Assembly (NCBI RefSeq): GCF_004010195.1
Contig: NC_057719.1
Coordinates: 34,631,692 to 34,695,691, forward strand
Direction: 5' to 3'
Source of the DNA: Chiloscyllium plagiosum
Taxonomy: Eukaryota
DNA: 64,000 nt
The notes below the pieces were generated by a model. That model did no database searches. It was given only the letters and a program-made list of their open reading frames with translations, and had not been told where the DNA came from. A program made the position numbers and the translations under genes. Of this stretch, positions 7,135 through 57,732 are shown piece by piece. Each line of letters starts with the position of its first letter. Position 1 is the first letter of the stretch.

Positions 7135-10119
7135 AAATATACAGGATTTTGCTTCTAGGAGAATGATCGGTGCCCAGTGGCAGGGTAAGGCTGGAGCAGG
7201 TGAAGGAAATGTCTTATAGGGTCAGGGAGGATAGGAGTTATTATTGGGAGCAGATATAGGAATTGAGAATGGTCACTGCTAAAACAAACAGGGTCCTGTC
7301 AAGGGAGTTGGAAGATGGTGAGGGCATTAGGCAGGATGGAAGGGCTGGAGTGATACTTGACCAAGGGGGATTGGGTGCAGACTATCAGAGAGTAATCAGA
7401 TGGTGGTGAAAGAGACAGATTATCTTGGCGAATTGGGGGTAACACTGCTGCTCCTCTCGGCCCATAAGCAGAGCTGGAAAGGATATTCATTTTTCCAGTC
7501 CTTGCTTCCCTTTAGCTGCCAGGTTTTCTGATGCCAAGGAAACCCAGCCAGACAGTGTTAAATTTAAAATGAAAATAAAATCTGAGAAAAGCAGTCTCTA
7601 AAATATTTACATGAACAGATTTGTCCTTGTGGCAGACTGATTGCTTCCCCACTGCATGTCTTCTTTAAACTGGAAGTGAATAGGATTGAGGTGGTTGGAG
7701 TCAGGTTTGAGATTTCTTTAAACTTTTATATCCCACCCAACCCACATACCTATGGCTTGAGGCTGGTGTGATGGGGGTTATTAAAACCCTTCCTCTGTCT
7801 GAGCTCCCGCAATATTCTTTCCAGTGGCAGCCTTTTAAACGTCTGACTCTGTTCTCTCTGTTACCTTATAGCCACAATCTCAAGAAGGGTGTGAGGATGC
7901 TATAATCACCTGAGAAATCCAGCAATGATGGGGCTTTCGTTTAGTAAAATGCTGCATTCTCCCACCTGACAGCAGGACCAATGGGTGGGGAATGCAACAA
8001 AGTCGGAGAGATTTTTGGTGCAGTCGCTAGAGAGGATTAGCCCATTTCAAAGGAGCACCACAGTTTACTTCTGAGGCCCAATGCAATATTCAACCCAAGG
8101 AGACTGAAAAATCAATAACCTACCATGTTTTAAAGTGACAGAATAAAAACAAAGTGGATCACTCGTTGGCTATTTGAAATAAAAGTAAAGATGGTTCAAG
8201 AAATAATGAGTAATCTGTTCCATCAGAATATTACACAAATCCTGAAAATGATGAAAATCTCCTCCCTCTTGTCATCCTTTAAAGTGGAGTGTAAACTATT
8301 TATGATGCAGGGTGGCATACCTTCTGCTGTTGGCTTATGTCACCAAATATGTTATAAATACAGTTTCCATTGAGTTCCATGTTCTTGAATAGTTTCCCAT
8401 CTTTTTAATAAGACAAGATAATCCTGCCATTTTCAATCTGTTTCCACAACAGTATGAAAGTCTCATGCGATTACTTTCTCACTAGAATAACTCTTACTGC
8501 AATTATCGGTAGTTCAAAATCTATGCTCCTAAATTTTCTGAACTGTTTGAGGATACATTAGACAGCCCCTGAAAATGGGCAGAGGGATCACAACGTTAGG
8601 TTATCCAGTGTCATTGCAATGCAGGCAGTTTGCCAACTTTCGGCTGCCCACTGATTTAAATGATATCAGCATCCAGCCAGAACTATCTGAGCAGTTAATC
8701 ATCTGGATAATTCATCAGGTGGCCAATATAAAGAATTACTAACTTCAGTTAAAACTAGCCTGCACTGATGTACAAAATGGTACATCATGGGAATCAGCTC
8801 AATTTTAGCACTGCAGTGGAGGAGATAGAAAGAAGAACAGTTTTCCTGCAAACTACAGGGGTCAAAATGTCCTCTTGACATTCACTCAGAAGGTAAAGGA
8901 GATAGGTAGCCATGGATGTCAAATTCAGCAGTCAAGCTCTGAAGTCCTAGAAGCCGAACTGAAGCATATGCAATGGTCTCACACGTGTGAGAAATGTTAA
9001 TAAGTGCATTTGCAATACAATATGCTATTAATAGCTTCAAGCACTGACAATCAACTACATTTTCATTATTTACCTATCAATAATCTCTCTGCTCCACCAC
9101 ACCCTGGCACATCTAATACAGCAGCAAGTCTCACATCCACATCTCATGGTTTGCACGCACTGTTAGCTATCCAACCATCGCACACAGATTGCATGTATCA
9201 CAATGAAAAAGGTCCTCTTCCTTGCTGAAAATGATTGCACATAACAGGACGCAGCAGAAGCTAACTGGAAAGGGACAGGTGCATCTGGTTGCCTTAACCC
9301 TCATGAAGAAAATGGTGCTGGCCATTGTTTCTATGACTATTTCTGAGACTGTCAAATAGATGTCAAATAGCAAATGATGTCAAAGGTCATATGTCATATA
9401 CAGATGGTTTATTTTTCTTTTATTGGAGATTGTCATTGGCTGGTACTAATGAAGCACTAATGTTTATTGCCATCTTAACAAACCAAGCCTGAATGTTGTC
9501 CAAGTATTGTTTCAGTATCGGAGGGGTTGTGAATGGTGTGAATTGTCCAAACATCAGTGAGCATCTTCACTTCTGACCTAACGATGCAAAGGTCAACAAA
9601 AGTGCAGGCACAAATATATTCTTCAGTGCATGCCACATGACTCCAAGTGGCAACTTATAACAACCAAATGAGCACCGAATACCTGTAGCAAAAGCAAAAG
9701 AAATCTTCTGGTAACAAATCGTTAAGACTTTGATAATGATTTTAAATAGCACTGGTACATCGAAAATGGGAATCCTTCCTGTTGCAGAATATAGATTCAA
9801 CTCTGTCAAAGTTTAGCACCAAGTTCCAAAATGGCAGCATTGACATTAAGTAAGCATAATGTTGACTGGCATCATGAACTGACTGCTTTGCATTCCAGTC
9901 AACATTGACGGCAGCATGGTAACACCCTCACCAATATGGTAACTAACATAATTCATAGGCACGCCATTGACACTAGTCAGCTCTCACACCATTCAGCTCT
10001 AGGGCAATAGTGGCCATAAACATTCCAATTTCTTTCTCTTTGGCTTTGTAATGTCTCTTCACTTCTTAGATCAATAGATATACTAGATTTTTTTTATCTG
10101 TGTATCAAACATTAGATAG

Positions 10120-10268
10120 GAGAAAGTGAGGTCTGCAGATGCTGGAGATCAGAGATGGAAATGTGTTGCTGCACATTCCTGAAGAAGGGCTAATGCCCGA
10201 AACGTCGATTCTCCTGTTCCCTAGATGCTGCCTGACCTGCTGCGCTTTTCCAGCAACACATTTCCATC
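10120..10268 (+). mobile_element. Penelope-derived mini-element with hammerhead motif, partial palindrome
   Basis: TSD ATCAAACATTAGATAG at 10104-10119 and 10266-10281 (first 3 nt overlap the element end); inverted 34-nt tail 10120-10153; inverted repeat 10154-10171 / 10251-10268. Confidence 0.85.
10172..10212 (+). ncRNA. Minimal type I hammerhead ribozyme motif
   Basis: CTGAAGA (10179-10185), A, GGGC-TAAT-GCCC stem II, GAAA (10199-10202), CG, TC; palindromic ACGT in stem III; stem I only ~2-3 bp. Confidence 0.75.
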
Positions 10269-10860
10269 AAACATTAGATAGTCATATTCAAAGTTATACA
10301 GCAAAGTCATTCACTTCCTTAGCACATGCTTGAATTCCAATACCACAGCATATGACAATTCATTTGCTTGTTATAATGATACCATCAGGAATTATCTCCA
10401 AAATAAGAAAAGCAATGAAAATAACACCAAATTGTGCCTTTAGCAGCATGCATTGTAATTTCACCTCTTCAGAGGACTTTAGTTGTTAAGTTGCACACTT
10501 CCTTTTTCAAAACTGACATTTCTGTACTAAAAATAAATATTATAGCAACTATATGAGTGGCCTGAAACGTATAAATATAATAGGAGTACCGTAAGGCCAT
10601 AATAATTAAGTTTAAGTTTATTTTGTTAAAATGGGTTCCTGTGACGTGATAGCCAGCTAAAGATACGAATTTTAGATGCCTGATTAATTGATCCAGTGAT
10701 ATACAACTGCTGTATCAATGTGATATGTCACAGAACAATAGTAAATTCATGCTCATAACTTTTTAATTTTACTCAAGGCATGAAGATTCAATATAAAGCA
10801 TAGAGAAGAAGGAGGGAGAGATCAGGCACTAATTAAGCTAAGGTTGATCATCAGCAGTTG

Positions 10861-23019: not shown

Positions 23020-23185
23020 NNNNNNNNNNNNNNNNNNNNNNNNNNNNNNNNNNNNNNNNNNNNNNNNNNNNNNNNNNNNNNNNNNNNNNNNNNNNNNNNN
23101 NNNNNNNNNNNNNNNNNNNNNNNNNNNNNNNNNNNNNNNNNNNNNNNNNNNNNNNNNNNNNNNNNNNNNNNNNNNNNNNNNNNNN
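23020..23185. other. Assembly gap (N run)
   Basis: Run of n characters. Confidence 0.99.
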
Positions 23186-23264: not shown

Positions 23265-25810
23265 TTATTCCATATATGTACCACTTTCTGTGTGAAAAAT
23301 GTTGCCCCTTAGGTTCCTTTTATATCTTTCCCCTCTCACCCTAAACCTATGCCCTCTAGTTCTAGACTCCCCACACCACCCCCCCCCAAGAAAGAGACTT
23401 TGTCTATTTATCCTATCCATGCCCCTCATGATTTTATAAACCTCTTGAAGATTATCCCTCAGCCTCCGACGCTCCAGGGAAAACAGCCCCAGCCTATTCA
23501 ACCTCTCCTGATAGCTCAAATCCTCCAAACCTGGCACCATCCTTGCAAATCCTTTCTGAAGCCTTTCAAATTTCACAACATCCTTCTGATAGGAAGGAGA
23601 CTAGAATTGCATGCAATATTCCAAAACTGGCCTAACCAATGTCCTGTACACTTGCAACATGACCTCCCAACTCCTATACGCAATACTCTGACCAATAAAG
23701 GAAAGCATACCAAATACCTTCTTCACTATCCTATCTACCTGCAACTCCACTTTCAAGGAGATATGAAGCTGCACTCCAAGGTCTCTTTGTTCAGAAACAC
23801 TCCGGAGGACCTTACCATAAAGTGTTTAAGTCCTGCTAAGATTTGCTTTCCCAAAATGCAGTACCTCGCATTTATCTGAATTAACTCCATCTGCCACTTC
23901 TAAGCCCATTGGCCCATCTGATCAAGTTCTTGTTGTAATCTGAGGTAGCCCTCTTCACTGTCCACAATACCTCAAATTTTGATGTCATTTGCAAACTTAC
24001 TAACTATACCTCTTATGCTCACATCCAAATCATTATATAAATGGCAAAAAGTAAAGGACCCAGCAACAATCATTGTGGCACTCTACTGGTCACAGGCCTC
24101 CAGTCTGAAAAACAACCCTCCATCACCACCCTCTGTCTTCTACCTTTGAGCCAGTTCTGTATCCAAATGGCTAGTTCTCCATGAAACGTATTCCATGATA
24201 TCTACCTTGCTAATCAGTCTCCCATGGGGAACCTTGTTGAACGCCTTACTGAAGTCCATATAGATCACATCCACTGCTCTGCCCTCTTCGATTCTCTTTG
24301 TTACTTCTTCAAAAAATCAAGTTTGTGAGACATGATTTCCTTCGCACAAAGCCATGTTGACTATCCCCAATCAGTCCGTGCCTTTCCAAATACATGTACA
24401 TCCTGTCCCTCAGGATTCCCTTCAACAACTTGCCCACTACTGACATCAGGCTCACCGGTCTATAGTTCCCTGACTTGTCCTTACCACTTCTCTTAAACAT
24501 TGGCACCACATTTGCCAACCTCCAGTCTTCCAGCACCTCAGCTGTGACTATTGATGATACAAATATCTCAGTGAGAGGCCCAGCAATCACTTCCCCAGCT
24601 TCCCACATAGTTCTAGGGTACACCTAATCAGGTCCTATGGATTTATCCACTTTTATGTTTTTCAAGACATCCAGCACTTCTTCCTCTGTAATATGGATAT
24701 TTTTGAAGATGTCACCATCTATTTCCCTACATTCTAAATCTTCCATGCCCTTTTCCACAGTAAATACTGATGCAAAATACTCATTAAGTACCTCCCCCAT
24801 CTCCTGCGGCTCCACACAAAGGCTGCCTTGCTGATCTTTGAGGGGCGAAAGCGAGGACTGCAGATACTGGAGATCAGAGTCTAGATTAGAGTGGTGCTGG
24901 AAAAGCACAGCAGGAGGAGCAAGAAAATCGATGTTTCGAGCAAAAGCCCTCATCAGGAATGAGCTTAGAGGGGCCCTATTCTCTCCCTAGTACCCTTTTG
25001 TTCTTTAATGTATTTGTAAAAACCCTTTGGATTCTCCTTAACCCTATTTGCCAAAGCTATCTCATGTCCCCTTTTTGCCGTCCTGACTTCTCTCTTAAGT
25101 ATATTCCTACTACCTTTATACTCTTCTAAGGATTCATTCGATCTATCCTGTCTATGCCTGACATATGCTTCCTTCTTTTTCTTAACCAAACCCTCAAGTT
25201 CTTTAGTCATCCAGCACTCTCTAAACTTAGCAGCCTTTCCTTTCACCCTAACAGGAATAGACGGTCTCTGGACTCTCATTACCTCATTTCTGAAGGCTTC
25301 CCATTTTCCAGCCGTCCCTTTATCTGAGAACATCTGCCCCCAATCAGCTTTTGAAAGTTCTTGCCTCATACCATAAAAATTGGCCTTCCTTCAATTGAGA
25401 CCTTCAACTTTTAGATCTGGTCTATCCTTTTCCATCACTATTTTACAACTAATAGAATTATGGTCGCTGGCCCCAAAGGGCTTCCCCACTGACACCTCAG
25501 TCACCTGGCCTGCCTTATTTTCCAAGAGTAGGTCAAGTTTTGCACCTACTCTATTAGGTATATCCGCATATTGATTCAGGAGATTTCCTTGTACACATTT
25601 AACAAATTCCTCTCCATCTAAACCCTTAACATTATGGCAATCCCAATCTATGTTTGGAAAGTTAAAATCCCCTACCCTAACCACCCTATTATTCTTACAG
25701 ATAGCTGAGATCTCCTTACAAATTTGTTTCTCAATTTCCCTCTGACTATTAGGGGGTCTATAATACAATCCCAGTAAGGTGATCATCCCTTTTTTATTTC
25801 TCAGTTCCAA
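23265..25810 (-). pseudogene. CR1 ORF2 (APE endonuclease plus reverse transcriptase), frameshifted
   Basis: Colinear ORF pieces 25391-25810, 24965-25369, 24624-24840, 24309-24623 and 23265-23576. Confidence 0.9.
24847..24964 (-). mobile_element. Penelope-derived mini-element with a canonical CUGAUGA hammerhead core, inserted in CR1 ORF2
   Basis: Minus strand CTGATGA-GGGC-TTTT-GCTC-GAAA-CATC (24956-24930); TSD TTTGAGGGGC 24837-24846 / TTAGAGGGGC 24965-24974; tail present. Confidence 0.8.
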
Positions 25811-26257
25811 ATAACTTCGTTGGACGTAGGTTCAGGAATATCCTCCCTCAGTATGGCTGTAATGCTACCTTGTCCCTGTCTGTTTGATTCGCTTCTGTTC
25901 TCAACTGGGCCCATCTCAGATTGATCTCTTTCCTCACTATCTCCCTGGGAGATGCCTCCCTCCCCCCCCCCTCCACCTTACTGGTTTAAATCCTCCTAAG
26001 CAGGCCTCGCAAATCTCCCTGCCAGTATATTAGTCCCCTTCCACTTCAGGTGCAATCCATTTCTTGTACAGGTCACCTCTAACCCAAAAGAGATTCCAAT
26101 GATCCAAAAATGTGAATCCTACTCCCATACACCAGCTCCTCAGCCATGAATTCATCTGCTGTATTCTCCTATCCGTACTCTCACTAGCTCACAGCACTGG
26201 GAGTAATCCAGATATTATTACTCTCAAGGATCTATTTTTAAATTCCTGCTTGACTCT

Positions 26258-27981: not shown

Positions 27982-28272
27982 ACCTCAGAACTTTAGATTA
28001 TCTCCCCCTTAGGGATGTGAAACAGTGGACCCTGTATCAACTGCTGCTGCACACTGTCCACCTCTTTTCCTCATCGACCACCCTGACATGCTTTGGCATG
28101 CCCTTTTGCCACCGGGCAGTGGGGATACCCAGTGATATCTTCATGGGAGTCCTCTCCCTTTCTCTCGAGGATCTAGGGTGGAGGCTGTTGCACGCAGAAG
28201 TCCCCTGCAAACCACAGATTGTGATGGTTCACTGAGTCCCAGCCCAACTGCTTGTTCTGTGATGCTATGGAG

Positions 28273-28367
28273 CCCTTCCTGAAGAAGGGCTAATGCCCGA
28301 AACGTCGATTCTCCTGTTCCCTAGATGCTGCCTGACCTGCTGCGCTTTTCCAGCAACACATTTCCAT
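28273..28367 (+). mobile_element. Penelope-derived hammerhead mini-element, single arm
   Basis: TSD CTATGGAG 28265-28272 / 28368-28375; 28277-28368 is identical to 10177-10268, including the intact hammerhead core. Confidence 0.85.
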
Positions 28368-28694
28368 CTATGGAGTCCGTGGACCCATGTACATATGGGA
28401 TGTGGGTGTCTGCACTCCCATTTTAGTTTTCTTAAAGATCTTCTTTTATGGTTTATGGTTGCACTTCAGCCCCACATCCTGGTCCTTGGCTACCCGGTGC
28501 AGAGGGGGAGCACATGTCAGAGTACCTCCTCATGGATCTGCTTCTGGGCCTGGCCAGACTGGCCATAAACAGCTCCAGGCTGCAGGGCTTGGAGGGGGTC
28601 ATTATGGCCAATTGCCTGCCCCTCTTCTGTGGTTACATTTGGGCCTGGGTGCCCCTAGGTAGTGAGCACACGGTATCTGCCAACACCCTGGCAA

Positions 28695-29366: not shown

Positions 29367-29413
29367 ACCACAAGTTGCCATGCAGCTATTTACTTAGGCA
29401 GTTCAAATATGTA

Positions 29414-29556
29414 GAGCTGAAAATGTGTTGCTGGAAAAGCGCAGCAGGTCAGGCAGCATCCAAGGAGCAGGAGAATCGATATCACAGGGTGAGGGTGATA
29501 GGCCGGAGAGGGGATGGGGACGGAGAGGTCAGGAAGAAGATTGCAGGTCAATTTCA
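29414..29556 (-). mobile_element. Penelope-derived mini-element lacking the hammerhead core
   Basis: TSD AGTTCAAATATGTA 29400-29413 / 29557-29570; 29414-29480 matches the arm at 53642-53706, joined to a segment that is pyrimidine-rich on the minus strand. Confidence 0.8.
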
Positions 29557-29911
29557 AGTTCAAATATGTAACCTACTTTGTGTGTTTATGTATATGCACT
29601 AATTAATTTAGGCATTAGTGCATTACCTCTTGAACTGATCTCAATTATTAACTTACTGTGTCTTATTCTGGTGCAACTTGCATGTCCCAATCCTGTGCGT
29701 CTTTGTTTACCATTGCTAAAGTTACATCCTGGTTTCCAACCCTCTGCCAAGTTCGCTTGAACTCTCCCCAACAGCACTAACAAGCCACGCTGCACGTTTA
29801 TTAGTCCCAGCTCAATCTAGGTGCAACCATTCTGACCTGCTAGGTTCCATCTCCTCCAGAATGAGTCCCAATATCCCAGGAATCTAAAATCTTCTTTTCT
29901 ACCACATATTC

Positions 29912-30399: not shown

Positions 30400-32110
30400 A
30401 CACCTCAGCCATGCCCCTGTCTCCATTTGTAAATCTGCTTTTTGATCTCTAATTGGCCCTATTCCTCTTGAAACCATTCTTCTACGATTTGTGTATCTAT
30501 GGAAGACTTTGGGGTTCTTCTTTATAGAATCATGGAATGGAACCATAGAATTATACAGTAAAGAAGTGGCCCTTCAGTCCATTGAGTCTGTACCACCAAA
30601 ACAATGTAAAATCTACACCTGTCTCACTTCCCAGCACTTGGCCCATAGCTGTGAATGTTAGAACAGTTGAAGCACTCATCCGAGTACTTTTTAAAGATTG
30701 TGAGGCTACATGTCTTAACTACCCTCTGGTGCTTCCAGGTCCCACCACTCTTTGGGTGAAACCTGTTTTCCTCAAATCCCATCTAAAATTTGTGCCTTTC
30801 AACTTAAAATCCACCTTATGCTAGCTGCTAGTTTTTTTCTCATAATTTCTCTTTGCTTCTCTTCTTTGCTTTTTCACCTCCCCTCTAAAACTTCAGAATT
30901 CCTCTTGGTTCTTATTTGTATTTTCTGCCTCACACCTGTCATAAGCATATTTTAGTTTCTAATGGTAACTTCTACCTCCTTTGTCAACCAGGGAATTTTG
31001 GATTTCCTTCACCTGTTGTTTTCCATTTGAGGGAGTATGCCTTGAGCCACTTCCTCTTTAAAAAAGTAATCTATTGTTCAGTTACCATTTCTCATATCAG
31101 CTTCTTGTTTCAGTCAGTCTTGTCTAGCTCTGTTTTTGCCCCATTGAGATCAGCTCTCCACCAATTGATTTTTCTTGGTCTGGATTGTTGCATGTCATTC
31201 TCCCTGATGATCCTGAACCTTATGATGCAATGATTACTATCTCCTAATCAATCATCCACTGACATTTGATCCAATTGTCCCAAGTCATTTCCATGGACCA
31301 AGTCAAACACTGCATCCTTCCTCTGAGGAAGGGTCACTGGATCTGAAACGTTAACTCTGATTTTTCTCCACAGATGCTGCCAGACCTGCTGAGCTTTTCC
31401 AACAATTTCTGTTTCTGTTTCTGATTTCCAGAATCAGCAGTTCTTTCGGTTTTTAAACTACATCCTTCCTTGTTGGGCTGAACACATTTGGCTGGAGAGA
31501 ACTCTCCTTAACATATTCTAGGAACACTTGACCCACACTGACCTTTACACTATCAGTATTCCAGTTTATATGTGGGCAACTAAAGTCCCCCATTATATCT
31601 GCTCTATAACGTTGGCATTTCTCTGTAAATCCCCTGCATATTTGTTCCTGTATATAAGGGCCTATTAAGTTAATAGTGATAGAGGGCTAACCACTAATGA
31701 GTCTTGACTAGATATACTTAATAGATTGATAACAGATACAAGTTACATTGGCTAGGCTCACAAAATAATTAAGACTATCAAGAAACAATGATAGCACATC
31801 TGTCTCCTTCAGGATCTTGAGCAAGATCATTTTCTCCACCCAAGACTGTATGATATCATCAGATTGAGTAGGGCTTATTCAGTCTCCAATATTGATGCTT
31901 TTAGAACTATTGATGTAAAGTATTTTGTATAAGGCAATGATGTTGGTGCCAATATAGACCACAATCTCTAGTATTTATCCTCCTCAGAATGCTCTGCAGC
32001 CAATCAATGATAACTTTGACACTAGCTCCAGGGAGACAACATACCATTTCCAATCCATATCAGTGGGCACAGAGACATCCCTATCCATAAGATCTCCTTA
32101 TTTAGGCTCT
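30400..32110 (-). mobile_element. Old CR1 fragments (APE and ORF1 esterase region) with a nested CR1 3' end at ~30525-30815
   Basis: TAAAGTCCCCCAT (minus: MGDF) near 31581; GATGTTGGTGCCAATAT (minus: IGTNI) near 31940. Confidence 0.55.
31323..31456 (+). mobile_element. Penelope-derived mini-element starting exactly at the hammerhead core
   Basis: CTGAGGA-A-GGGTC-ACTG-GATCT-GAAA-CGTT; TSD ACTGCATCCTTCCT 31309-31322 / ACTACATCCTTCCT 31457-31470. Confidence 0.8.
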
Positions 32111-33109: not shown

Positions 33110-34106
33110 TAGTTGATGGGAAATGTTCATCCTGGAGTTCAGTTACCAGTGGTGTACCGCAAGGATCTATTTTGGGGCCACTGCTGTTTGTCATTTTTAT
33201 AAATGACCTAGATAAGTGCATAGAAGGATGGGTTAGTAAATTTGCGGATGACACCAAGGTCAGCGGCATTGTGGATAGTGCTGAAGGATGTTGTAGGTTA
33301 CACAGGGACACAGATAAGCTGCAGAGCTGAGCTGAGAGGTGGCAAATGGAGTTTAATGTGGAGAAGTGTGAGGTAATTTACTTTGGAAGGAGCAACAGGA
33401 ATAAAGCATACTGGGCTAATGGTAAAATTCTTGGTAGTGTAGATGAGCAAAGAGATCTATGTCCATGTACATAGATCCCTAAACTTGCCACCCAGGTTGA
33501 TATGGTTGTTAAGAAGACATATGGTATGTTAGCTTTTATTGGTAGAGGGATTGAGTTTCGGAGCCACAAAGTCATGCTGCAGCGATGTGGCTGCGCTTGG
33601 AATATTGCGTACAGTTCTGGTCACTGCATTATAGGAAGGATGTGGAAGCTTTGGAAAGGGTTCAAAGGAGATTTACTAGAATGTTGTCTGGTATGAAGGG
33701 AAGATCTTATGAGGAAAGGCTGAGGGACTTGAGGCTGTTTTCATTAGAGAGAAGAAGGTTGAGAGGTGACTTAATTGAGACATATAAGATAATCAGAGGG
33801 TTTGATAGGGTGGACAGTGAGATCCTTTTTCCTCAGGTGGTGATGGTTAGCATGAAGGGACATAGCTTTAAATTGAGAGTGATAGAGATAGAGATAGTTT
33901 CTTTACTCAGAAAGTAGTAAGGGCATAGAACGCATCACCTGCAACAGTAGTAGACTCGCCAAGGGAATTTAAATGATCATTGGATAAATAAATGGATTAA
34001 AATGGAATAGTGTAGGATAGATGGGCTTCAGATTGGTTCCACAGGTTGGCACAACATTGAGGTCCGAAGGGCCTGTACTGCACTGTACTATGTTCCATGT
34101 TCTATG
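33110..34106 (+). mobile_element. 5'-truncated CR1 nested in an older CR1 (~32990-35410)
   Basis: GVPQGS and FADDTK at 33150-33260; ORF 33585-33917 LEYCVQFW; tail ATGTTCCATGTTCTATG. Confidence 0.88.
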
Positions 34107-35413: not shown

Positions 35414-36705
35414 AGAACAAAGAACAAAGAAAATTTACAGCCCAGGAAAAGGCCCTTTGACCTTCCAAGCCTGAGCTGATCCAAATCCACTGTCTAAACC
35501 TATCGCCCAATTCCTAAGGATCTGTATCCGTCTGCTCCCCACCTAATCTGTCCAGATGCACTTTAAATGAATCTACTGTGCCAGCCTCTACTACCTCACA
35601 CCAACAGTGCTCTCTTCCAGATCATTAATGTATATCACAAACAACAGTGGTCCCAGCACCGACACCTGCGGAACACCACTGGTCACCTTTCTCCATTTCG
35701 AGAAATTCCCTTCAACTACTACTCTCTGTCTCCTGTTGCTCAAGCAGTTCTTTATCCACCCAGCGAGAACACCCTGCACACCATGTGACTTCATTTTCTC
35801 CATTAGGTTACCATGGGGAACCTTATCAAATGCCTTACTAAAGTCCATGTAAATGACATCTACAGCTCTTCCTTCAACTATCAACTTGGTCACTTCCTCA
35901 AAGAACTCTGTTAAGTTGGTAAGGCACGATCTCCCCCATGTAAAACCGTGTTGCTTATCACCGGTAAGCCCATTCTTTTCCAAATATATATAGATTTTAT
36001 CCCTCAGTACCTTCTCCAGCAACTTTCCCACCACTGACATCAGGCTCACTGGTCTGTAGTTACCTGGAATATCCCTACTACCCTTCTTGTACAGGGGGAC
36101 AACATTAGCAACCCTCCAGTCCTCCAGCACCTCACCTGTGTTTAAGGATGCTATAAAGATATCTGTCAGGGCCCCAGCTACTTCGTCGCACCTTCCTCAG
36201 CGACCTGGGATAGATCCCATCCGGTCCTGGGGATTTGTCCACCTTAATATTCTTTAGCCTACCCAATACATCTTCCCTCCTTATGTCAAAGTCATCCAGA
36301 GTAAACAAACTTCTATCTCTAATCTCAACATTCATCACATCCCTCTCCTCAATGAACACTGATACAAAGAAATCATTGAGAATCTCACCCATTTTCTCAG
36401 TTTTGAAACACAACCTTCCTTCCTTATCTTTTAGTAGACCAAGCCTTTCTCTAGTTACCCTCTTGCTTCTTATATATGAATAAAAGGCATTGGGATTCTC
36501 CTTAATTCTGCTCACTAAAGTTATTTCATGGCCCCTTTTAGCCTGCTTGGTTCCTTGTTTAAGATTGGTACTACTCTTTCGATATTCCTCTAAGGCCCAT
36601 TCTGTTCTTAGCTGCCTGGACCTTATGAATGCTTCCCTTTTTCTCTTGGCTAGTCACACGCTTTCTCCTGTCATCCACGGTTCACAAATTTTGCCTTTCA
36701 ATCTA
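35414..36705 (-). mobile_element. CR1 ORF2 fragment with an internal deletion
   Basis: ORFs 36132-36515 and 35591-36130 ([11 protein letters not shown]...YINDL) are joined near 35598 directly to the 3' UTR; (AGAACAA)n tail. Confidence 0.88.
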
Positions 36706-37467
36706 TGAGGTCCAACTGGCTGACATCATTACAATCACTGTAGATGATGATGTACAGAAAAATTATTCACTTTGCTAGTGACACCCTTCATAAAGTTAAG
36801 CTTATTCAAAATATTCCTACTAAACAAAATCTTGCTCTCTCATCATATCAATGGTTCATGACATATATTTGTTTCCAAGTCTCCAAATGTTTGAAATCTA
36901 CAAATCTCATCCATGGCCCCACCAGTTCCTAAATCTGTCTTCTGTATTATAATAAACTGTTACTCTGTTTCTCCGACTCTGATTTCTCATGTTTCCTCAC
37001 TTGGTCCACTCTGCCACCACTGACCATGCTTTCAATTGTTTAGGTTCCATGCTTTCCAGTTCTCTACCTGAACCTTTCCACCTTTTCTTCTTAGACAGAA
37101 AAATAAGTAACAAAAAGTAACATTTGGAAAATAACACATGGTAACTTTAGAGGTCTATTTCAGGTATGCAAGAGGAGTTGGACCAGTTTGTGTTATTTCC
37201 AAGTTTGTCTGGCTTTTCCTGCTCTCTCTCTTCTTTTAAAACCCTCTTTGAATCCAAGAAAGTTTTTTGGACACACCTCCAAATATCAGCCTTTTGGAGC
37301 TTGAACATTTATTTTTTAATGATGCATCCATGAGGAATACAAGGATAGCTGTAGCATATTGAAATCCCCCATCATCTTATAAGATCATGGCTGAACCTTT
37401 ACATCAACTCCACTCTCACACACTCTGCTGTTATCCCTTAACTCCTGTAAATCAGCACCAAATCCTC

Positions 37468-37722
37468 AGTTAAAAATCACACAACACCAGGTTATAGTCT
37501 GACAGGTTTATTTGGAAGCACCAGCTTTAGGAGTGTTGCTCCTTTATCAGGTGGTTGTGGAGTATAAGATCACTGATCTTACGATCTTATACTCTACAAC
37601 CACTTGATAAAGGAACAACACTCTGAAAGTTGGTGATTCCAAATAAACCTGTTGGACTATAACCTGGTGTTGTGTGATTTTTAACTTAGTACCCCCAGTT
37701 CAACACTGGCATCTCCGAATCA
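37468..37722 (+). mobile_element. Palindromic Penelope-derived mini-element, second family
   Basis: 104-bp arms 37468-37571 / 37583-37686, ~36-nt one-sided tail 37687-37722; decayed hammerhead cores (CTTGATAAAGGAAC...TCTGAAAGTTG and its mirror); ACCAAATC on both flanks. Confidence 0.8.
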
Positions 37723-37984
37723 AGACCAAATCTTTAGAATACCAATGTGTATTTGTGTCTCATCTTATAAAATATATTCCACTCTTCCATTCTTTCCATC
37801 AACATGGATGCTTTCACACTCCACATATTAGACTCTATCTGCCTCTGTCTTGCCCAATTATCCAATACCTTAATCATTATCTTGTGCAGCATCTTTGTGT
37901 CCTAATTACTTTCTGACCTACATTTGTATCACTGGCAAACTTGCATACATTATATTCGGTTTCCTCACCCATCATTGTTATATT

Positions 37985-38573
37985 CAGGTACTGCTGGGAT
38001 AACCTGTGTTTTGGCAGTGCAGTTTGGCTGTAATGTTGATGAAGAATTAGGAAACGGTATTTTGGAGAACACTTAGCTCCGTTGACAATAGCTCAATTCC
38101 AGCAGCGATTGGTTTGTGCACTTTATTCTCTACATGCACCAATGTGGGCGCCAAAATCTCTGTGTATGCACCGGTGTTCTTCCTGTTCTGCATATGCACT
38201 GGTATCTGTGCATGCGCAACATTGAGCCAGTCTTCGTGCCATTCTGCGCATGCACCAAAGTCCCTGCACTGTTCTGCGCATGTGTGATGTCAGCTGCCAA
38301 CAGGACAGCTTTCTGTGAGAGATATTGTACAGAGAGCAGCATTCTTCCATTTTTAAAAAATATACTGTGTTTAATTTACTTTTGTTTCATTAATAAATAT
38401 GACTTCAACCTTTATTCAGGCTGTGCTATACTTTGGGTAATGTTTGAGTGATCGTGAGTGATATGTTTTGTTGGTCTGTTCCAATCCCACTTTTCCCATA
38501 GGCCCCATTATTTCTATTAAGCGATTTTCTATTAAGCTGGAATGCAACAAGAGCATTATAGGAGAACTACCTG
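37985..38573. mobile_element. Non-autonomous Tc1/mariner-type DNA element (~590 bp)
   Basis: Degenerate TIRs CAGGTACTGCTGGGATAAC / ATTATAGGAGAACTACCTG followed by TA; internal TGCGCATGCAC-like repeats; interrupts an old CR1. Confidence 0.55.
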
Positions 38574-39188
38574 TATTCTATGTAGTTGGGGAATGAGCAC
38601 TGATCCTTTGGGCATTGGTCACATTCTGTCATCTCCATTTTCTGGTTTTTGGGATTTTCTTTCTAATCTTTTATGGGATGTGAATGTCGCTGGCAAGGAC
38701 AACATTTGTTGACCATCACTAATTGCTGTCGAACTGTGTGGCTTAAAGGTCAGTTCACGGAATATTTATGGGTCAACCACATTACTGTAGGTCAGGAGTC
38801 ACCTCTAGGCCAGACCAGGTAAGGATGTCAGACTTCCTTTCCTAAAGTACTGTTAGTGAAAGAGTTGGATTTTGTTACAACAACTGCTTGTTAAGCAATC
38901 AATCCATGTTTATGCATCATTCCCATTCTTATGAGCCCTAATATTGGATATTGAAACTTTTCGCATGATTGCTTATCGAATGTGTTCCTAATATCCAAAT
39001 GTACTGCTTCCACTAATTCCATCTCTCACCCGTGTTCATTACACCCTCAAACAATACTAGCTGATTTGTCAAACATAATCTTCCTTTCGTAACTCATGTT
39101 TACACTACATAATTATACTGTGATTTTCCAATTGTCCTGTTACCATGTCCTTAATAAATGATTCTAGCATTGTTCCCTGCTGTTAATG

Positions 39189-39398
39189 GAGAAAGTGAGG
39201 TCTGCAGATGCTGGAGATCAAAGTTGAAACTTTATTGCTGGAACAGCACAGCAGGTCAGGCAGCATCCAGGGAACAGGAGATTCGACGTTTCGGGCACAG
39301 GCCCTTCTTCCTGTGAAGGGCCTGTGCCCGAAACGTCGAATCTCCTGTTCCCTGGATGCTGCCTGACCTGCTGTGCTGTTCCAGCAATAAAGTTTCAA
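39189..39398. mobile_element. Perfect palindromic Penelope-derived mini-element
   Basis: 85-bp arms 39223-39307 / 39315-39399 with no mismatches; 34-nt tail 39189-39222; TSD CCCTGCTGTTAATG 39175-39188 / 39399-39412. Confidence 0.92.
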
Positions 39399-42300
39399 CC
39401 CTGCTGTTAATGTCAGGCTAACTGGTTTACAGTTCCTTGCATCCTCTCACTCTCTTTTCTAAAACAACCATGTTATACTTGACATTTTCGATCAACTGGG
39501 ATAATTCTAAAATCTGTAGGAATTCTGGAAAATCAAAACTAATACATTAATTTGCTATGCAGCCATCTCCTTTAAGACTTTATAGTTCACATCAACACAT
39601 TTATACAAAGTTAGTTTATTTTCCCCCCATAAATTCCTCACTCTCATTAAACCTTTGATTCACATAATTTCTGGTGTGTTCTTTATATTTCAATTGTGAA
39701 GTAGAAATGCCTCCCTACAATATTTTAATAGTAAAAGATAGCATGTATATTCAAGTTGCTATTTGTTTTCAATGGTAAGACATAAACAGTGAGCCTTATT
39801 TTATCAGTAACATTTTTCTCTAACACTGCTTAACAGCTGGAGAGGCACATTACATAACCAGCTTCTGAAATGCCATACCACTGAGGTATAACAATATTTC
39901 CTACATAAATAAGAGCCCTCCTACTGTACAAAGAACATTGAAATGTCATACATTTAGCCTCTATCCCAATTCCTTTGTGTGGAAAGATGAAAAAAATCTG
40001 ATTTTGATTTTTATTGAGAAAACTGCAGCAAAATTACCGTCAGTTTCATATAGCACTCATAATAAAATTATTGCCCTTACATAAATGCTCATTGCTGCTG
40101 AACAATGTACTTATTGATCCCTTTTGCTCGCACATATTTTGTATTTAAAAATGTCTGTTATTATTTTTCTGTTAGACATGGTCAGAGTGCTGTTTCAATT
40201 CATCTAATCATCCTGTTCTATAAAACACTGGAGTCCAGAGATGGCTGAAAATTATATAAATCTGCTTCAAAGTTGCATTAGGAAATGGGCAGCATGCCAA
40301 CTTTGTGGTCAGCTGCCTGAGGATGCTTAAAAGCAGGAGTGCATCTCTTAAAATAAAGTTGTACTACCAATACAATAAGCATTATATTTAATGATAATTA
40401 TTCCCTGCTTTCATCCCAAAACTGCAGACACCGTGCTAAGGGAGTCAATGAGTTAGTGACTGTCCCTAGATATTTTCATGACTCCTTCTAAATGTTGGCA
40501 GTAACAGCAAGACCACTGTTGAGCAAGAGGAGAACTTCTTCAAGTTAGGCATCCTTGCAAGAGGATTCACAGCAAGCCAACTGCCAGCAGCTTTCCCCTG
40601 GCATCATAGCTGCATGAGGTTAGACAACTTCAAAAGCAGCAATGGTGAACATTTACTTTGTAGAGAATTAATGGCTTTATCACGTTTGGCACTTTGATCT
40701 GCAATGTCACTTTCTAGGAGATACAGAATGTCATTAATAAAGGAGTTCTTGAAATGGTTTTTATGTTTAAATCGAGTGCTAAGACATGTCTCAAGGACCA
40801 ATGATATGACAGTTGCCAGGATCATTGAACAATAACAACTTCACTCTCTTTCTTTCTACCAGGTGTTTGAGTGACCCTCCTTCTTCTACAGCTTCCTTGA
40901 GTTTACCCTTGACTTTGTAGCCAATTGAGCTCTGCTGCTGTTGTCCTGCTTCATCCAACTACAAGACACTCCATTTGCTTAGATAGCACACTATGATGAG
41001 GTAAGAACTCTTTCTGGAATCTGCCCATCTGACTACCACCTGATCCACTGCTTTAACAGCCTTTTGCTGTGCTCAGTAATGATCTTGATGTTCTCCTGGC
41101 TTTGATTATATTTGTGTTTCTCCAGTATGGTGTAATTGCAATATGATTCTGGAGCCATGGCTGTAGTGATATTTCCAGTCATCCAGTCACATTCTTGATC
41201 AGTCAAATATTCAGAAGAAAGGTGACCAACATGAGGTAAATGCATTGTGACAGCTATCTGGGTTCCTTACACAAATGTGCATACTTTTGCAATCATAAAA
41301 GACCTGGATACGATTTGAGTGATCTTGGGAGATTGAAATGTCCTTCAGGATAAGCCTAACAGATAAATGAGAATTGGAATTCAATTTTATTCAAGGTAAT
41401 CCTAAATCACTGATCCTACTATGAAAGTAGACCTACAGGCCTGAAAATTGTCAGAAAACAGCACTTAATCTAAATACCTTAAATTCAAGACCTCAAACGA
41501 GCTTAGAAAAATAGAAAGTCCTCGATGCAGAAGACATGAGACAGATTTAATCACAACTGTAATGTTGAGGCTTAACCTAAATCACAGTTAAATATGGTCA
41601 AACAAACTGAAAAATAGTAATTACTTGTAACAGTCATCTCACCACCATAGGGAGGATTAGAAAAGTCTTTGCAAGACCTGGTTAAAAGGGCAATGTTCAA
41701 ATCAGCTCCTAGAAGTAATTTATAATTAAAATAATAGTACTCCAAAACAAAATATTAATTCTAAGTGCATTGCTCCAGATTTCCTATCTGATATTCTTAT
41801 GCCCAATCTTGGAGATGCTTCATTCTTTGCCCATTGATGTATTTATAGCAGTCACAATATTAAATAGTTTATATTTAAGGAACAATTTCCCCATGATGGC
41901 TCATCCAAGGGCTCGACTTACCATTGTTCAAATAAAACTTGAGAAGTGTATTATCTGCTAACAAAATCACATTAAAGCACAGGGTCAACAAACACATGGC
42001 ATTACGATATAATTATCATAATCAGAAAAGCACAAATTCCATCTGCAAAAATAATCTCAGCATTTATTAAACAAATAGCTAGCCATTTAACATGTAGCAA
42101 AATCACTCTTTACCTGATTGTTGAGTGTCCCAATTAAATGAACAGCAGATGACCAAATCTAACAACTTAATTTTACAGATCGAATGAAGCAGTGTCCACT
42201 GCTTTTAGTTCTATGGACTTATTTTGAAGGTTTTATACTTAAGTCTGCAGAAAAAAAAATAGCTGATAGGTCCACAGACATAAGAACTCAGGGCTGATTT

Positions 42301-50390: not shown

Positions 50391-51353
50391 AATTGAGTTC
50401 CTGTCTACTCTCTCAGCTGATTTTAAAAAATTACCGTATGTATAATATTGCATAACAACAAAACTGGAACAAAAATCAGAAACACTTTCTGTCTTCATCA
50501 TTTCACTTGTCAAATCTGAGATAAAAATGTGCCTTAATTCATAGTAGAAAATAAGCAAAATGGAATTGAACACCCATTGTATTTAATGGAATTACATTAA
50601 AATTCTGATTAAACTAGCTAGAACGAGCTATCAGTAATAAATCACCAGTCCATACTAGTTGAATTGAAACGGACAACAAAGAACTAGTAATTGAATAAAA
50701 ATGAATCAGACGAGTTCCTTTAAAGTTTTTTTTTAACAACCTCAGTGAAGGGAGAGCTTTCTGGGGTTGGGGCTACAATTCAGCCATATTTGAGAAGATG
50801 GCTTGTTCCAACCTCCTTCACACATAGGAGGGACTATGTGCTCCACTTTTTCTTTCCCCCTATTCACTTGTCAATTCAAGCCTAGGTATGAATTGTGAAT
50901 GGTGCTAAACATTGTACAATCATTGGTGAGTATTCCCACCAGGTGAATACTCAACTAACAGTTCAGTTGGATCCCCCAAAGTGCAAGTATTTACGCCACG
51001 GAAGACAAGTCAAATGAAATAGTCCTGACACAATACCAATTGTGGCAATCACCAAATGCAAGCTTCTCACAGTTCAGCCATTGATGAAATAAAGTCAGCA
51101 TGAATGCCTGGGATATTTTCATTCCTGTCATCAGGCGCCTCCTAGCTCCCTGACTCTCCATCTGAATGACAGGCACGCATATACCCCACATATATTCTAG
51201 TGGTATCTGCATTTGCTAATGAGTTGCACTATTTGGGGTTAGCCTTTTCCAGTCTCCTCCCTTCCAATTTACCTTCTATTCTCACATGGGCCATAGGGTC
51301 AGTCCTACAAGGGACCATAGGTCACACATTCACCTGACAGATAACCTATGTAT

Positions 51354-51476
51354 CAGTGAAGATGACTTTTGCCCGAAATGTCAATTCTCCTGGTCCTCAG
51401 ATGCTGCCTGATCTGCTGTTCTTTTCCAGCACCACACTCTCGACTCTAATCTCCAGCATTTGCAGTCCTCACTTTT
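51354..51476 (+). mobile_element. Penelope-derived mini-element with decayed hammerhead and tail
   Basis: GTGAAGATGACTTTTGCCCGAAATGTC...GATGCTGCCTGATCTGCTG...CTCCAGCATTTGCAGTCCTCACTTTT. Confidence 0.7.
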
Positions 51477-52989
51477 GCTCTGGAGAAGATTGCTGAGCTA
51501 GAAGCATTACATTATATAAATATTGTGGTGAGTAGCTTGAGTAGAGTATACATGAGGGCTGACGAAATACATAGCCCATATGAAAGCCGAGTGTTGTTGC
51601 AAGTTGAATGGGTGTATGCTTGACAAGACACATTGAAAAGGCGTACAGACTTAACCCATAGGATGTCACTTCCTATATTGTAACCAATACTGTGACATAA
51701 TTTTTAAGCTGCTTACCTCATCATCCACCTCCAAGGTTTATCCTAGACTTGACTTACATAACTCCACAATAACAAAACCTCCATTTAGAACCCAGCTTTG
51801 CAATAATTACTAGTGTCCATAATTCCACAGGCAGCAACTGAATATCAGTGTCTACATTTCAAATTGAATTCTCTCTGCAATTCAAGTAAATCATCCCCAT
51901 TTGTAACCTTTTTTGTTTTAGTTATCAGCTTGACAGAAAATTCCAGATTTTGAATAAAGTGGTCTTTATTGTGCTATAAAGAAAATATTTCCATTTAATG
52001 TCTGAAGGATTCTAGTTACTGAGCCAAACAAGTTGATTAGTGAAATAGTTCATTGGGACCATGTGCCCATTCTAACTAACAGTCACCCAAAACAAGCTTT
52101 GTTTTTGAAGAACACATATCTGGGACTGCAATAAATGTACCATATCATGACTGTTATGATTTCACCGGAGAGAAAAAGTGACATGCTTTATCGTCAAGTT
52201 TGTAAAACGGAGCTGTGTCTTATCTATATAAATCAATATAATTGCAGTAGAATTTTGGCAGCATCTGTCATTTTCTTGCAGAAGAACTAACAGATGTGCT
52301 TTCAATATGAGAAACATGATTTTCCTGTACAACAGGTCCCCAGCGAGTATATTTATCTAATATGGAACAGCAGCAAATTATGTAGGGAAATTTCAGGTAG
52401 GTCTATTCATTTTGCATTATGACAATCATGATTTAATAGATAAAAAGAAAAAAAAAACAAAGAAATAGTATACCATCTGTTTGCAAATCTCCCTGTTCTA
52501 ATGATATTATCCCACCATAAGGAACAAATAGTCAACGCAGTATCCCTTAACTACCAGATAATGCAATAAAATTGCAGTTCAGTAGAATATATGGTACAGC
52601 CCATGCCGCCCAGTCATAAATCTTTGTTACATAAAGTTTTTTCTTTGTGAAGTTTTCCCTATTCCTTTCTCTTCATACACTGCAGTAAGATTCCATTAGT
52701 GCTCGGCTATATGTCCATTCATCATGTATGGATGTATAGCGATGGCAAGTAATTGAACTATGGGAAAAGTTAGACATCCTCTTGATGGATTTTATCCAAC
52801 ATCCATACATCAGCAATTTAAGCAAGAATTGCAGATTAGCAATGATGTAAGTCGATTATCATTCTCTTTTGTAATACAAGAGCATAATGGGCAGCCATGT
52901 TGTGATCATCCCACTCAGCAGAGACCTGGGAGTGAGGATGTGGCAGAGATTTCCATTTGTATATCACAATGAGGCTGCATGTCTCAGAT

Positions 52990-53325: not shown

Positions 53326-53643
53326 CACTGAATCATCCAATTTAAATTAAATATAAATTATCTTCCAAGTTTAACACTGGCACAGCTGGATATTGGGAAC
53401 CCAGCAGCTGAAAGGATATAAGAATTTTTTCTTACAAAAGATAAGTTCCTTTATAGCAATGCTTGTAGGCTAAGAGGACAGGCAGGAGGCTGGAAGAACA
53501 CAGCAAGCCAGGCAGCATCAGGAGGTGCAGAAGGCGACATTTTGGGTGTAACCGTTCTTCAGGACTGGGGGTAGATGTGGGGGGAGCTGTAGAGAGGTGA
53601 AGACAGGTAGAGGATACAACCTGGTGGGTCAATGGAGGAATGA

Positions 53644-53865
53644 GTTGAAAATGTGTTGCTGGAAAAGCGCAGCAGGTCAGGCAGCATCCAAGGAACAGGA
53701 GAATCAACGTTTCGGGCATAAGCCCTTCTTCGGGATTTCCTGAAGAAGGGCTTATGCCCGAAACATCGACTCTCCTGTTCCTTGGATGCTGCCTGACCTG
53801 CTGCGCTTTTCCAGCAACACATTTTCAGCTCTGATCTCCAGCATCTGCAGTCCTCACTTTCTACA
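53644..53865. mobile_element. Palindromic hammerhead mini-element nested in the PLE 3' region
   Basis: TSD CAATGGAGGAATGA 53630-53643 / 53866-53879; ~92-bp arms; ~34-nt tail 53830-53863; plus-strand core CTGAAGA 53740-53746...GAAA 53760-53763. Confidence 0.9.
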
Positions 53866-53949
53866 CAATGGAGGAATGAATCCAGTTGGTGGCCAGGAAC
53901 AATAGAAGGGAGGGGAAGGGACTGGGAAGAGAGTCGGGGGAAGGGGAGG

Positions 53950-54290
53950 TTATTTGAAATTGGAGAACTCAATGTTGAGTCCTCCTGTCTGTAGGGTGCC
54001 CAGTTGGAAGATAAGGTGTTGCTCCTTCAGTAGGAGCTGTGATTTGTTTTGGCAATGGAGGAGGTCAAGGATGGTCATTTCAGGAAGGGAGTGGTTGGGG
54101 GAATTGAAATGGGCTGTAACTGGGAGGTCCAGTGGGCCCCTGCAGACCTGGTTGATCTGCTCGGTGAGCCGTGCCCTGAGTTTACATTCAATCTCCCCAA
54201 TGTAGAGAAGACTACATTGGGAGCATCTGATGCAGTAAACTAGGTTGGAAGAGTGGCAGGTGAGCCTCTGTCTCACCTGGAAGAACTGTT
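53950..54290 (-). pseudogene. PLE GIY-YIG endonuclease domain
   Basis: TCHSSNLVYCIRCSQCSLLYIGE...LRARL...AHF...KEQHLIFQLGTLQTGGLN; the CxxC between the two tyrosine motifs is typical of Neptune-type PLEs. Confidence 0.9.
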
Positions 54291-54579
54291 GGGGCCCTGG
54301 ATGGAGGTGAGGCGTATGGTGCACTGGCAAGTTTTGCACCTATTCTGGTTGCAGGGAAAGGTACCTGGGGGTCCAGTGACTGGGGTGGTGTGAACCAAGG
54401 ACTGTTGGAGGGAACAGTCTTTGCAGAGGCAGAGAGGGGTGGGGAGAGGAAGATGTCCATGGTGGTGGGGTCTATTTGGAGTTAGTGGAAGTGTTGGGGG
54501 ATGATGACTTGACTGTGGAGACTGGTGGGGTAGTAGGTGAGGACAAGGAGTCTCTGTCTTTATTGCGTTGGTGGGGGTG

Positions 54580-55985
54580 TTTAAAGCAGTGGAGCAGGGA
54601 ATGGAGGTGGTGTGGGCCAGGGCTGTCTGGATGATGGAGGGATGAAAAGTACATTATTCAAAACAAGTGGACATCTGGAAAGCTTGCAAGTAGAATGCCT
54701 CCTCATCCAAGTAGATGCGGCAGAGGTGGAGGAATTGGGAGAACAGGATGGAGTCTTGCAGGATACTGGGTGGGAGGAAGTGTGGTTCAGATAGTTATGG
54801 GAGTCTGTGGGTTTGTAGTAAACATCTGTCTGCAGACTGACGCTGGAGTTGGAAATGGAGACGTCAAGAAAGGGGAGGGAGGTGTCCAAGACGGACCAAG
54901 TGAATTTGAGGGCAGAAGTTGATGAACTGGTCCAGTTCAGCCTGGGTGCAGGACACTGCACTGATGCAGTCATCAATGTAACAGCGGAAGAGTTGGGGTA
55001 CAGTGCTAGTGCTGAAGAGGGACTGTTCGATGTGGCCGTCAGAGGCAGCATAGCTGGGGCCCATCCAGGTACCCATGGCCATCCCCTTGATTTGAAGGAA
55101 ATGGGAGAAGTTAAAGGAAAAGTTATTGAGGGTGAAGACCAGTTCGGCGAGGTGGAGGAGGGTGTTTGTGAAGAGGATGAATGAGTCCACTGGAGAGAAA
55201 GAAGTGGAGGGCCTGGAGGCATCCTTGTGGGCTACAGATGTGTATAAGCACTGCACATCCATAGTGAAGAGAAAGCGCTGTCGGCCAGGAAGTTGCTGAA
55301 GAGATGAAGGACATGGTTGGTCTCATGGATGCAGGTGGGAAGTGCCTGAACTAAGGGGGAGAAGATGGAGTTGAGGAAGGACAAGATGAGTTCGGTGGGG
55401 CAGGTGCATGCCGAGACGATGGGTCAGCTAGGGTAGTTGGGCTTGTGGATCTTGGGGAGCAGGTAGACCCAGGCAGTGCGGGCTGAGAGACTATGAGTTT
55501 GGAGGCAGTGGAGGGAGATCACCAGAGGCAATGAGGGCACTTATGGTGTCTTGGATTTGCCGTGATGGGTCGCAGTGAGGTCATGGGCAAGGGGCAGGTA
55601 GGACATGGTGTCGGAGAGTTGGCGTTCGGCCTCTGTGATATAGAGGTCTGTCCTCCAGACTACCATTGCCCCGCCTTTGTCAGCGGGTTTGATGGTGAAC
55701 CGGGGGTTGTTGCAGAGAGAGTGGAGTGCTGCACATTTGGAGGGGGTGATGTTGGAGTGGGTGAGAGGGTGGGGAAATTGAGACTGCCGATGTCACGTTG
55801 GCAGTGTACAATGAAAAAGATCTAGGGCAGGTACCAGGGGTGAGGGGTGACCAAGTGGAGCAGAAAGGTTGGAAGTGGGTGAAGGGGTTGTCCAAGGGAG
55901 TTTGGGAGTCCCCATCAAAGAAGAAAGCACAGAGGTGGAGGCAAAGGTGGAAGAAGAGCTCCACGTCACAGCAGATCTTTAATTC
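54580..55985 (-). pseudogene. PLE reverse transcriptase, frameshifted
   Basis: ORF 54864-55262 (MDVQCLYTS...NNFSFN...GMAMGT...YIDD); ORF 54581-55222 tail (LPFLDV...VYYKPTD). Confidence 0.9.
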
Positions 55986-57237: not shown

Positions 57238-57732
57238 AATCTATATTGATCTATTAATCTCTATGTCTATCATCTGGAAAATAGAGAGATTGGAGATAAT
57301 TCATCAATGCCATTATCAAATGGGGGATAATTCTAAGAATCAGAGTCACAGTTAGCTTCTGCCTGTAAACTGAGAATTTATTTTATATTGACATATTATA
57401 GTGTTTATATATCTAACTATGTGATGAGTAAAGATATAGCTATAATGTGAAGAAAATTTAGTCCATTGATCCTTTATAGGTAGATAAGCTGGAAAGAGAC
57501 CAATATGTATTGGTCTGTATTATTTTGATGTTCAACGAACACAGGAAGAAACAGATTATTTAGTCGTTTAACTCATGTATTTTAGATTTTGCCATACACA
57601 AATGCCTGCTACATTTGCCCATGTCAGACCAGTGAACTGTGTTTGAAACATATTTCAATTGTTGTGCATTTTAGATTGGTCTGTGCACATGGAAGGCACA
57701 AAAACAATGCTAGCTGTTTCTTCCAAAAAGCA

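Follow-up and report, generated by a model that had tools for sequence, protein, structure and literature searches.

In the genome of Chiloscyllium plagiosum, a perfect palindrome lies at about 39 kb of a 64,000-nucleotide stretch of contig NC_057719.1 (positions 34,631,692 to 34,695,691), hereafter called the window and numbered from its first letter. The two arms are exact reverse complements at 85 of 85 positions and are separated by a centre of 7 nt. Only the left arm continues outward, into a tail of 34 nt that ends at the left copy of a 14-bp target site duplication (TSD, 14/14 letters identical), and this duplication encloses the whole unit (Table 1). In five shuffles of the window the longest perfect arm measured 9-11 nt, and the chance of a 14-mer direct repeat is about 6e-7 over some 169 placements. 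One base is ambiguous at each inner end of the duplication: C39399 doubles as arm end and TSD start, and G39188 as TSD end and usual end of the family, since loose ends of related contigs peak at that position. The unambiguous TSD is therefore of 12 bp and the tail of 34-35 nt. Apart from these two bases, all the dimensions given by the first-pass annotation (arms of 85 bp, loop of 7 nt, left-only tail of 34 nt, TSD of 14 bp) were reproduced.

Read outward from the centre, each arm displays a minimal hammerhead motif, composed of the first core box, a helix II of 4 bp, the GAAA box and the cut triplet, and then runs on for about 60 nt. The window was scanned with the hammerhead core pattern, and core boxes and helix II were found intact in four sister copies (at 10179, 28279, 53740 and 24956), for which cleavage is predicted. 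At 39 kb the junction breaks the ribozyme core on both strands, and the copy carries no ORF. Rfam returned no hammerhead family match in the window, and single arms fold no better than shuffles (z from -0.3 to 0.8). The scanned pattern agrees with the minimal hammerheads described in passages on the pLTRs of Penelope-like elements (PLEs; PMC4209133).

Table 1. Features of the 39-kb palindrome and of related loci in the window.
Feature	Position	Strand	Remarks
Left TSD	39175..39188	+	14 bp; its last G is equally compatible with the element end; fit of the organism-B contig ends exactly at 39188
PLE tail, in the longer cDNA only	39189..39222	-	34 nt; homologous tails at 10, 24, 51 and 53 kb (alignment)
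Left arm, pLTR end module	39223..39307	-	Sense on minus strand, continuous with tail; may reach 39310 through the shared TTC
Head-to-head junction	39308..39314	.	7 nt; at the hammerhead core's 5' edge; TTC compatible with both arms; core broken here
Remnant minimal type I hammerhead motif	39311..39341	+	Damaged first core box; helix II of 4 bp at 39318-39329 (seen in fold); GAAA box 39330-39333; cut expected after 39337
Right arm, same pLTR module	39315..39399	+	Sense on plus strand; extends as far as the inner, tail-less end point
Right TSD	39399..39412	+	First C also fits the arm end
Sister insertion, 10 kb	10104..10281	.	16-bp TSD; 53-nt tail-bearing arm; full tail-less arm
Solo tail-bearing sister copy, 24 kb	24836..24974	-	11-bp TSD with 1 mismatch
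Sister insertion, 28 kb	28265..28375	+	Tail-less arm, identical to the 10-kb arm; inverted stub of 6-8 nt; 8-bp TSD
Sister insertion, 29 kb	29400..29570	-	Tail-less arm begins close to the hammerhead cut site and is joined to ~78 nt of other sequence; TSD of 14 bp
Second-family PLE-type palindrome, 37 kb	37457..37732	.	One-sided tail; TSD; 10/104 arm mismatches
Old solo tail-bearing sister copy, 51 kb	51352..51478	+	TSD looked for, none found
Older sister palindrome, 53 kb	53630..53879	.	14-bp TSD; tail on right; 4/90 arm mismatches; in the 3' part of the decayed PLE
Decayed ORF-bearing PLE	53460..55322	-	RT fragment; C-terminal GIY-YIG; own pLTR with hammerhead-like core

Two further traits of PLE insertions are present. 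The 39-kb unit contains the head-to-head inverted, 5'-truncated copy that characterizes insertions of EN+ PLEs, and its 34-nt tail falls within the 30-40 nt expected at one end, as do those of the three other two-armed loci (34, 35-36 and about 36-38 nt). The hammerhead-bearing pLTR module, the tail, the inverted copy and the TSD altogether bear out the PLE origin proposed earlier: the 39-kb palindrome is a relatively young, inert stump insertion of a PLE end module (pLTR), copied twice head to head.

The window contains seven members of the family, which we call family A, namely the full palindromes at 39 and 53 kb, the 10-kb locus with its short tail-bearing arm, the tail-less copies at 28 and 29 kb, and the solo copies with a tail at 24 and 51 kb; all but one of the seven are accompanied by a TSD of 8-16 bp. 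The first-pass annotation had pointed out the recurrence of the same asymmetry at three other places, and it held in part at each of them. At 10120 the 34-nt tail is there, but the locus is not an equal-armed palindrome, because its tail-bearing arm measures 53 nt in all. At 53644 the one-sided tail is of 35-36 nt, but on the right. At 37468 a one-sided tail of about 36-38 nt is likewise present on the right, but the palindrome does not belong to the same family, blastn giving no match to the 39-kb arm.

Some of these copies present particularities of their own. At 29 kb, about 78 nt of pyrimidine-rich sequence (29478-29557) are joined to the tail-less arm 2-5 nt from the hammerhead cut site, within one 14-bp TSD, and this is the only family-A copy in the window with a start near the cut site. 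The piece shows no significant likeness to the host PLE (scores as high were reached by 42, 70 and 110 of 300 shuffles). The second-family palindrome has a centre (37568-37590) that includes a filler of 11 nt repeating the first letters of the arm, and its arms extend about 20 nt upstream of the hammerhead core, beyond the reach of family A. Furthermore, hammerhead-bearing modules of this general type, older and more distantly related, lie at 31315-31455 and 57730-57830, both on the plus strand.

Other identities were examined and rejected. A MITE or another DNA transposon does not agree with a tail outside the repeat on one side, with TSDs of 8-16 bp and with centres that vary. Retrozymes consist of tandem direct repeats bounded by hammerheads, and their copies begin at the cut site; here the arms are inverted, and five of the seven family-A loci begin 3-7 nt upstream of the core, one begins near the cut site and one is too decayed. 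As to a microRNA hairpin gene, Rfam gave no match at the gathering score at 39 kb, and its three sub-threshold miRNA matches on sister palindromes are matches to a hairpin shape. A metagenome scan with a 19-nt word of the arm found 48 loci, none of which extends to a real family copy (0/48; best 30 columns, E=1.4).

The decayed ORF-bearing PLE is the host of the 53-kb stump, a younger palindromic insertion. Its GIY-YIG look-alikes stand at 0.96. Among its four ORF fragments, Pfam gave one weak RVT_1 match (E=0.019, below cut-off), one weak DUF match and two fragments without match, and a comparison with PDB sequences gave 0 matches. Its pLTR and the 39-kb arm are distantly alike (31 nt at 87%, E=1e-5). 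The family-A module is thereby linked to a PLE, though not to the element that mobilises it. Elsewhere in the window, decayed frames at 19205-19720, 24624-25831, 33555-33917 and 35591-36653, read by eye, are presumably pieces of the RT and endonuclease of a CR1-type LINE, and a run of 166 N (assembly gap) lies at 23020-23185, distant from the 39-kb palindrome.

The end points of the family were compared over 39,985, 33,583 and 26,923 contig records of three DNA runs, and the end points and joints given below are those among the rows listed. The top loose-end row was 39188 in every run (605, 404 and 603 contigs, together with 617 RNA reads), and beyond it follow unrelated AT-rich flanks (agreement 0.35-0.43). 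A second group of ends is clipped at 39235-39236 (368, 312 and 442 contigs), where the 39-kb copy departs from its kin; in five of its six rows the consensus can be followed back as element-like sequence to about 39222, before it turns to noise, which places the tail-less end within 2-3 nt. On the 5' side, some 7-8 nt upstream of the hammerhead core, the contig consensus dies away. In the single-cell RNA run, no position was found where many molecules begin or end. The arm end points are thus fixed and non-random, as the earlier reading supposed, with the outer one at 39188 and the second about 34 nt inside (hundreds of contigs among the rows listed).

Just outside the tail end, the consensus finishes in AACTA in all three DNA runs (agreement 0.35), which may mean that the template RNA continues beyond the tail, or that certain targets are preferred. 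Tandem tails, and joints going back within the module, are seen in contigs and suggest that family A inserts into its own copies.

The joints between arms are variable, with 2-3 shared bases (TTC with GAA at 39 kb). The absence of a single master centre, on which the first interpretation also depended, was confirmed in the window, the loci at 39, 53, 10 and 28 kb having four different centres. Six contigs of sample S1 share one recurring centre close to that of the 39-kb copy (loose end 39313, agreement 0.87). This centre may have arisen repeatedly by microhomology, or it may mark a small lineage of hairpins.

In a sequencing comparison, 4 of 24 runs, three of DNA and one of single-cell RNA, were set against 38000-39314, i.e., the left flank and one arm. 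Contigs from two organism-A samples of different studies (X1, the likely source, and X5) match 38810-39209 without difference, reaching 21 nt into the tail; these 21 element-side letters at the left junction are fewer than the 31 letters of the bridging rule. The X5 contig, of 515 nt, has 115 letters more beyond its 400 exact ones (38810-39209) and may correspond to a path through the graph or to an allele in which the palindrome is rearranged. A contig of 1527 nt from organism B (X9) fits 38810-39188 and departs precisely where the left TSD ends, 1147 letters remaining. The two organisms differ at 34 of 848 letters (4%) over three flank pieces. The first-pass annotation had suggested a check of the empty site in a relative; the contig departs at 39188 as an empty site would make it do, and from this departure we infer that organism B appears empty at the 39-kb site. 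On an empty allele the contig would be expected to end at 40559; the stretch found there presumably resembles a repeat, but no second copy of it was found in the window, and it is given no weight here.

The marker letters 39221 and 39270 account for 45-48% of contig depth in organism A and 4-8% in organism B (depth being no measure of copy number), and records at least 99% like the 39-kb copy represent 10% in A against 2% in B. Since both are commoner in A, the 39-kb copy belongs to a subfamily that grew in the line of A. To call the event very recent was an overstatement, the 0/85 arm mismatches bounding arm divergence at <3.5% only and the left junction being shared by two samples from different studies; what stands is that the insertion is young relative to its kin, being apparently absent from a relative at 4% and part of a species-enriched subfamily. 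Nor is the homogenisation of arms, proposed as an alternative, necessary: the arms of older sister palindromes at 53 and 37 kb have diverged (Table 1), so that it need not be invoked.

How would such a structure have been made? We hold it moderately probable that the 39-kb copy is a dead-on-arrival insertion by a PLE RT/GIY-YIG protein, in which two target-primed cDNAs, one from each start site, were joined at their 3' ends by microhomology. The putative endonuclease would nick the two target strands 12-14 bp apart, a stagger read from the TSD. The 3' end of each nick would then prime a cDNA of its own on the element RNA, one at an outer start site and the other about 34 nt further 5', and this difference would leave a tail on one arm and none on the other; the end points are observed in the window and in contigs, and the priming is modelled on in vitro work (PMC11167929). 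Synthesis of both cDNAs would end no more than a few bases from the hammerhead's 5' edge, where ends are seen to cluster and which may be the RNA 5' end or a strong stop. Finally, the cDNA 3' ends would anneal through 2-3 complementary bases (TTC with GAA) and the gaps would be filled, the product reading TSD, tail, arm, mirror arm, TSD.

Exactly one tail is found at four of the four two-armed loci of the window, and the centre of the 53-kb palindrome is two substitutions away from a zero-loop palindrome, which suits the annealing of two molecules. Priming from both nicks, already proposed in the first-pass annotation, fits by analogy the in vitro data on another PLE, PAc (PMC11167929). Its companion proposal, that one cDNA starts at the RNA's 3' end, is probably wrong, because both start sites are internal in PAc, the one PLE tested (PMC11167929). 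Against the two-cDNA reading, one tail at four of four loci has p ~0.06 by itself if each nick chose freely, the 39-kb centre is two letters off a simple microhomology product, and the 24-kb solo copy with its TSD shows that one cDNA can suffice. The shapes at 10 and 28 kb could be mimicked by later deletion from a longer palindrome. Moreover, the ORF-bearing PLE of the window has only a distantly related pLTR, and the mechanism is here proposed by analogy with PAc, which belongs to the Poseidon clade and used its start sites without strand difference (PMC11167929).

The main rival is self-priming, in which a single cDNA running from the tail end to the edge of the hammerhead folds back and copies itself, and the endonuclease or a second nick resolves the product 34 nt short. 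Identical arms and one tail per locus would then come automatically, the stop point does have TTC and GAA words within a few bases of each other, and the 28-kb stub is readable as a curtailed fold-back with a 5-nt loop. Head-to-head palindromes have indeed been interpreted as self-priming (Arkhipova 2013, PMC3846280), and the expression "EN-mediated resolution" used in a passage of Craig 2021 (PMC8557442) comes near to it. We nevertheless judge a fold-back rather unlikely. At 39 and 10 kb it is the tail-less arm whose sense sequence makes up the unpaired centre, unlike what the fold-back of a tail-bearing cDNA would leave, and the tail-bearing arm at 10 kb is too short to have templated the other; later deletion could blur these objections at both loci. 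In addition, the copies at 28 and 29 kb are tail-less and have a TSD without any tail partner, and the tail-less end corresponds to an RT start site in vitro (PMC11167929).

It is improbable that the unit of movement is a master hairpin, either a MITE-like element or a non-autonomous PLE of palindromic form. The recurring centre of the six S1 contigs, near that of the 39-kb copy, and the abundance of the subfamily in organism A speak for it, but four family-A loci have four centres, those at 10 and 28 kb having identical sense arms and different junctions. Furthermore, the 5'-side consensus of hundreds of contigs decays to noise with no mirror arm, and because of the tail the ends are not terminal inverted repeats. 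Improbable, too, are two separate insertions, the second within or beside the first and in the opposite orientation. PLE endonucleases cut AT-rich DNA, their own pLTR included. PAc may nick its own pLTR (PMC11167929), the 53-kb palindrome lies in another PLE, and family-A contigs show nested or tandem joints; against this, a single TSD surrounds both arms with no second one inside, rare subfamily letters are common to both arms over 85/85 positions, and the same layout occurs at four loci. An assembly or library artefact (a hairpin read) is very improbable. Perfect arms and a contig comparison covering 38000-39314, with 21 letters on the element side of the left junction, would leave room for one, but hairpin reads do not produce a TSD and a one-sided tail, contigs of two samples reproduce the left junction to the letter, and older loci of the same shape have diverged arms.

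Within the reading of two target-primed cDNAs, a more specific version can be put forward, though tentatively and as a possibility that we ourselves doubt: the stumps might be paired "strong-stop" products, in which a PLE dimer would use both internal sites in one event, one per nick, copying only the 90-126 nt that separate them from a fixed RNA 5' end just before the hammerhead, and the cDNA ends would be joined whenever no jump to the remaining template succeeds. If true, thousands of young copies in this genome would record how start sites are paired, where the RNA has its 5' end and by what chemistry the ends are joined, and would settle the origin of inverted pLTRs. This origin has been named as an open question (PMC8557442, PMC3846280), and the in vitro work of 2024 accounts for the tail and not for the inversion (PMC11167929, in the passages available). 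The 39-kb locus itself is inert, its value being that of a clean and minimal PLE insertion unit. In a young and abundant family with fixed 3' ends and clustered 5' ends, junction counting would test twin priming against fold-back. The presence or absence of such insertions can also serve as a marker between related species, and RNA editing or small-RNA pathways may draw on the long perfect hairpins of transcripts.

Known EN+ PLE units (Penelope/Poseidon, Neptune, Naiad; PMC8557442, PMC3846280) share with the 39-kb copy the head-to-head inverted 5'-truncated copy, the tail at one end, the enclosing TSD and the pLTR hammerhead. Passages of Craig 2021 (PMC8557442) describe the inverted truncated copy and a tail of 30-40 bp, often on one end, and those of Arkhipova 2013 (PMC3846280) inverted pLTRs, a 31-bp tail and, in the rotifer, TSDs of 8-10 bp; PLE anatomy is also covered in a curation guide (PMC8969392). 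In contrast, the 39-kb unit is reduced to two end modules without an ORF between them, the TSDs of family A are of 8-16 bp, and its 5' ends cluster at the hammerhead edge rather than being spread.

The closest experimental system is PAc, the Poseidon of Anolis, which nicks and extends both strands, has two internal start sites bracketing the tail with no strand difference in their use, prefers uncut RNA and was modelled as a dimer (Frangieh 2024, PMC11167929). Like PAc, family A has two fixed end points about 34 nt apart, its uncut hammerhead is copied, and both target strands appear to be extended; the start sites of PAc, for their part, lie within the start of the ORF. In the available text of that paper there is no head-to-head, palindrome or TSD passage, and the text of the supplement gave no matches (PMC11167929). 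The Penelope of Drosophila virilis has a repeat of 34 bp. Its transcription starts 46 bp ahead of an intron, the end of which adjoins the hammerhead, so that it gives no demonstration of an RNA start at the hammerhead edge (Schostak 2008, PMC2377424); the element resembles family A in tail length (34-37 bp) and in the inverted terminal arrangement (PMC2377424).

In the literature searched, subscription papers lying mostly outside it, we found neither an explicit two-cDNA, head-to-head model for pLTR inversion nor a publication on such elements in cartilaginous fish. The anatomy of inverted pLTRs, tail and TSD is already described; the 39-kb palindrome is a further example of it. Another point of reference is the twin priming of LINE-1, where both nicks prime, an inversion with TSD results, the joint shows microhomology, and the two cDNAs cover different parts of the RNA. 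The 39-kb copy shares with it priming from both nicks, as here proposed, together with the inversion, the TSD and the microhomology at the joint. It differs, however, in having no poly(A) end and in that both cDNAs would cover the same 85 nt, which calls for two templates, or for one template read twice.
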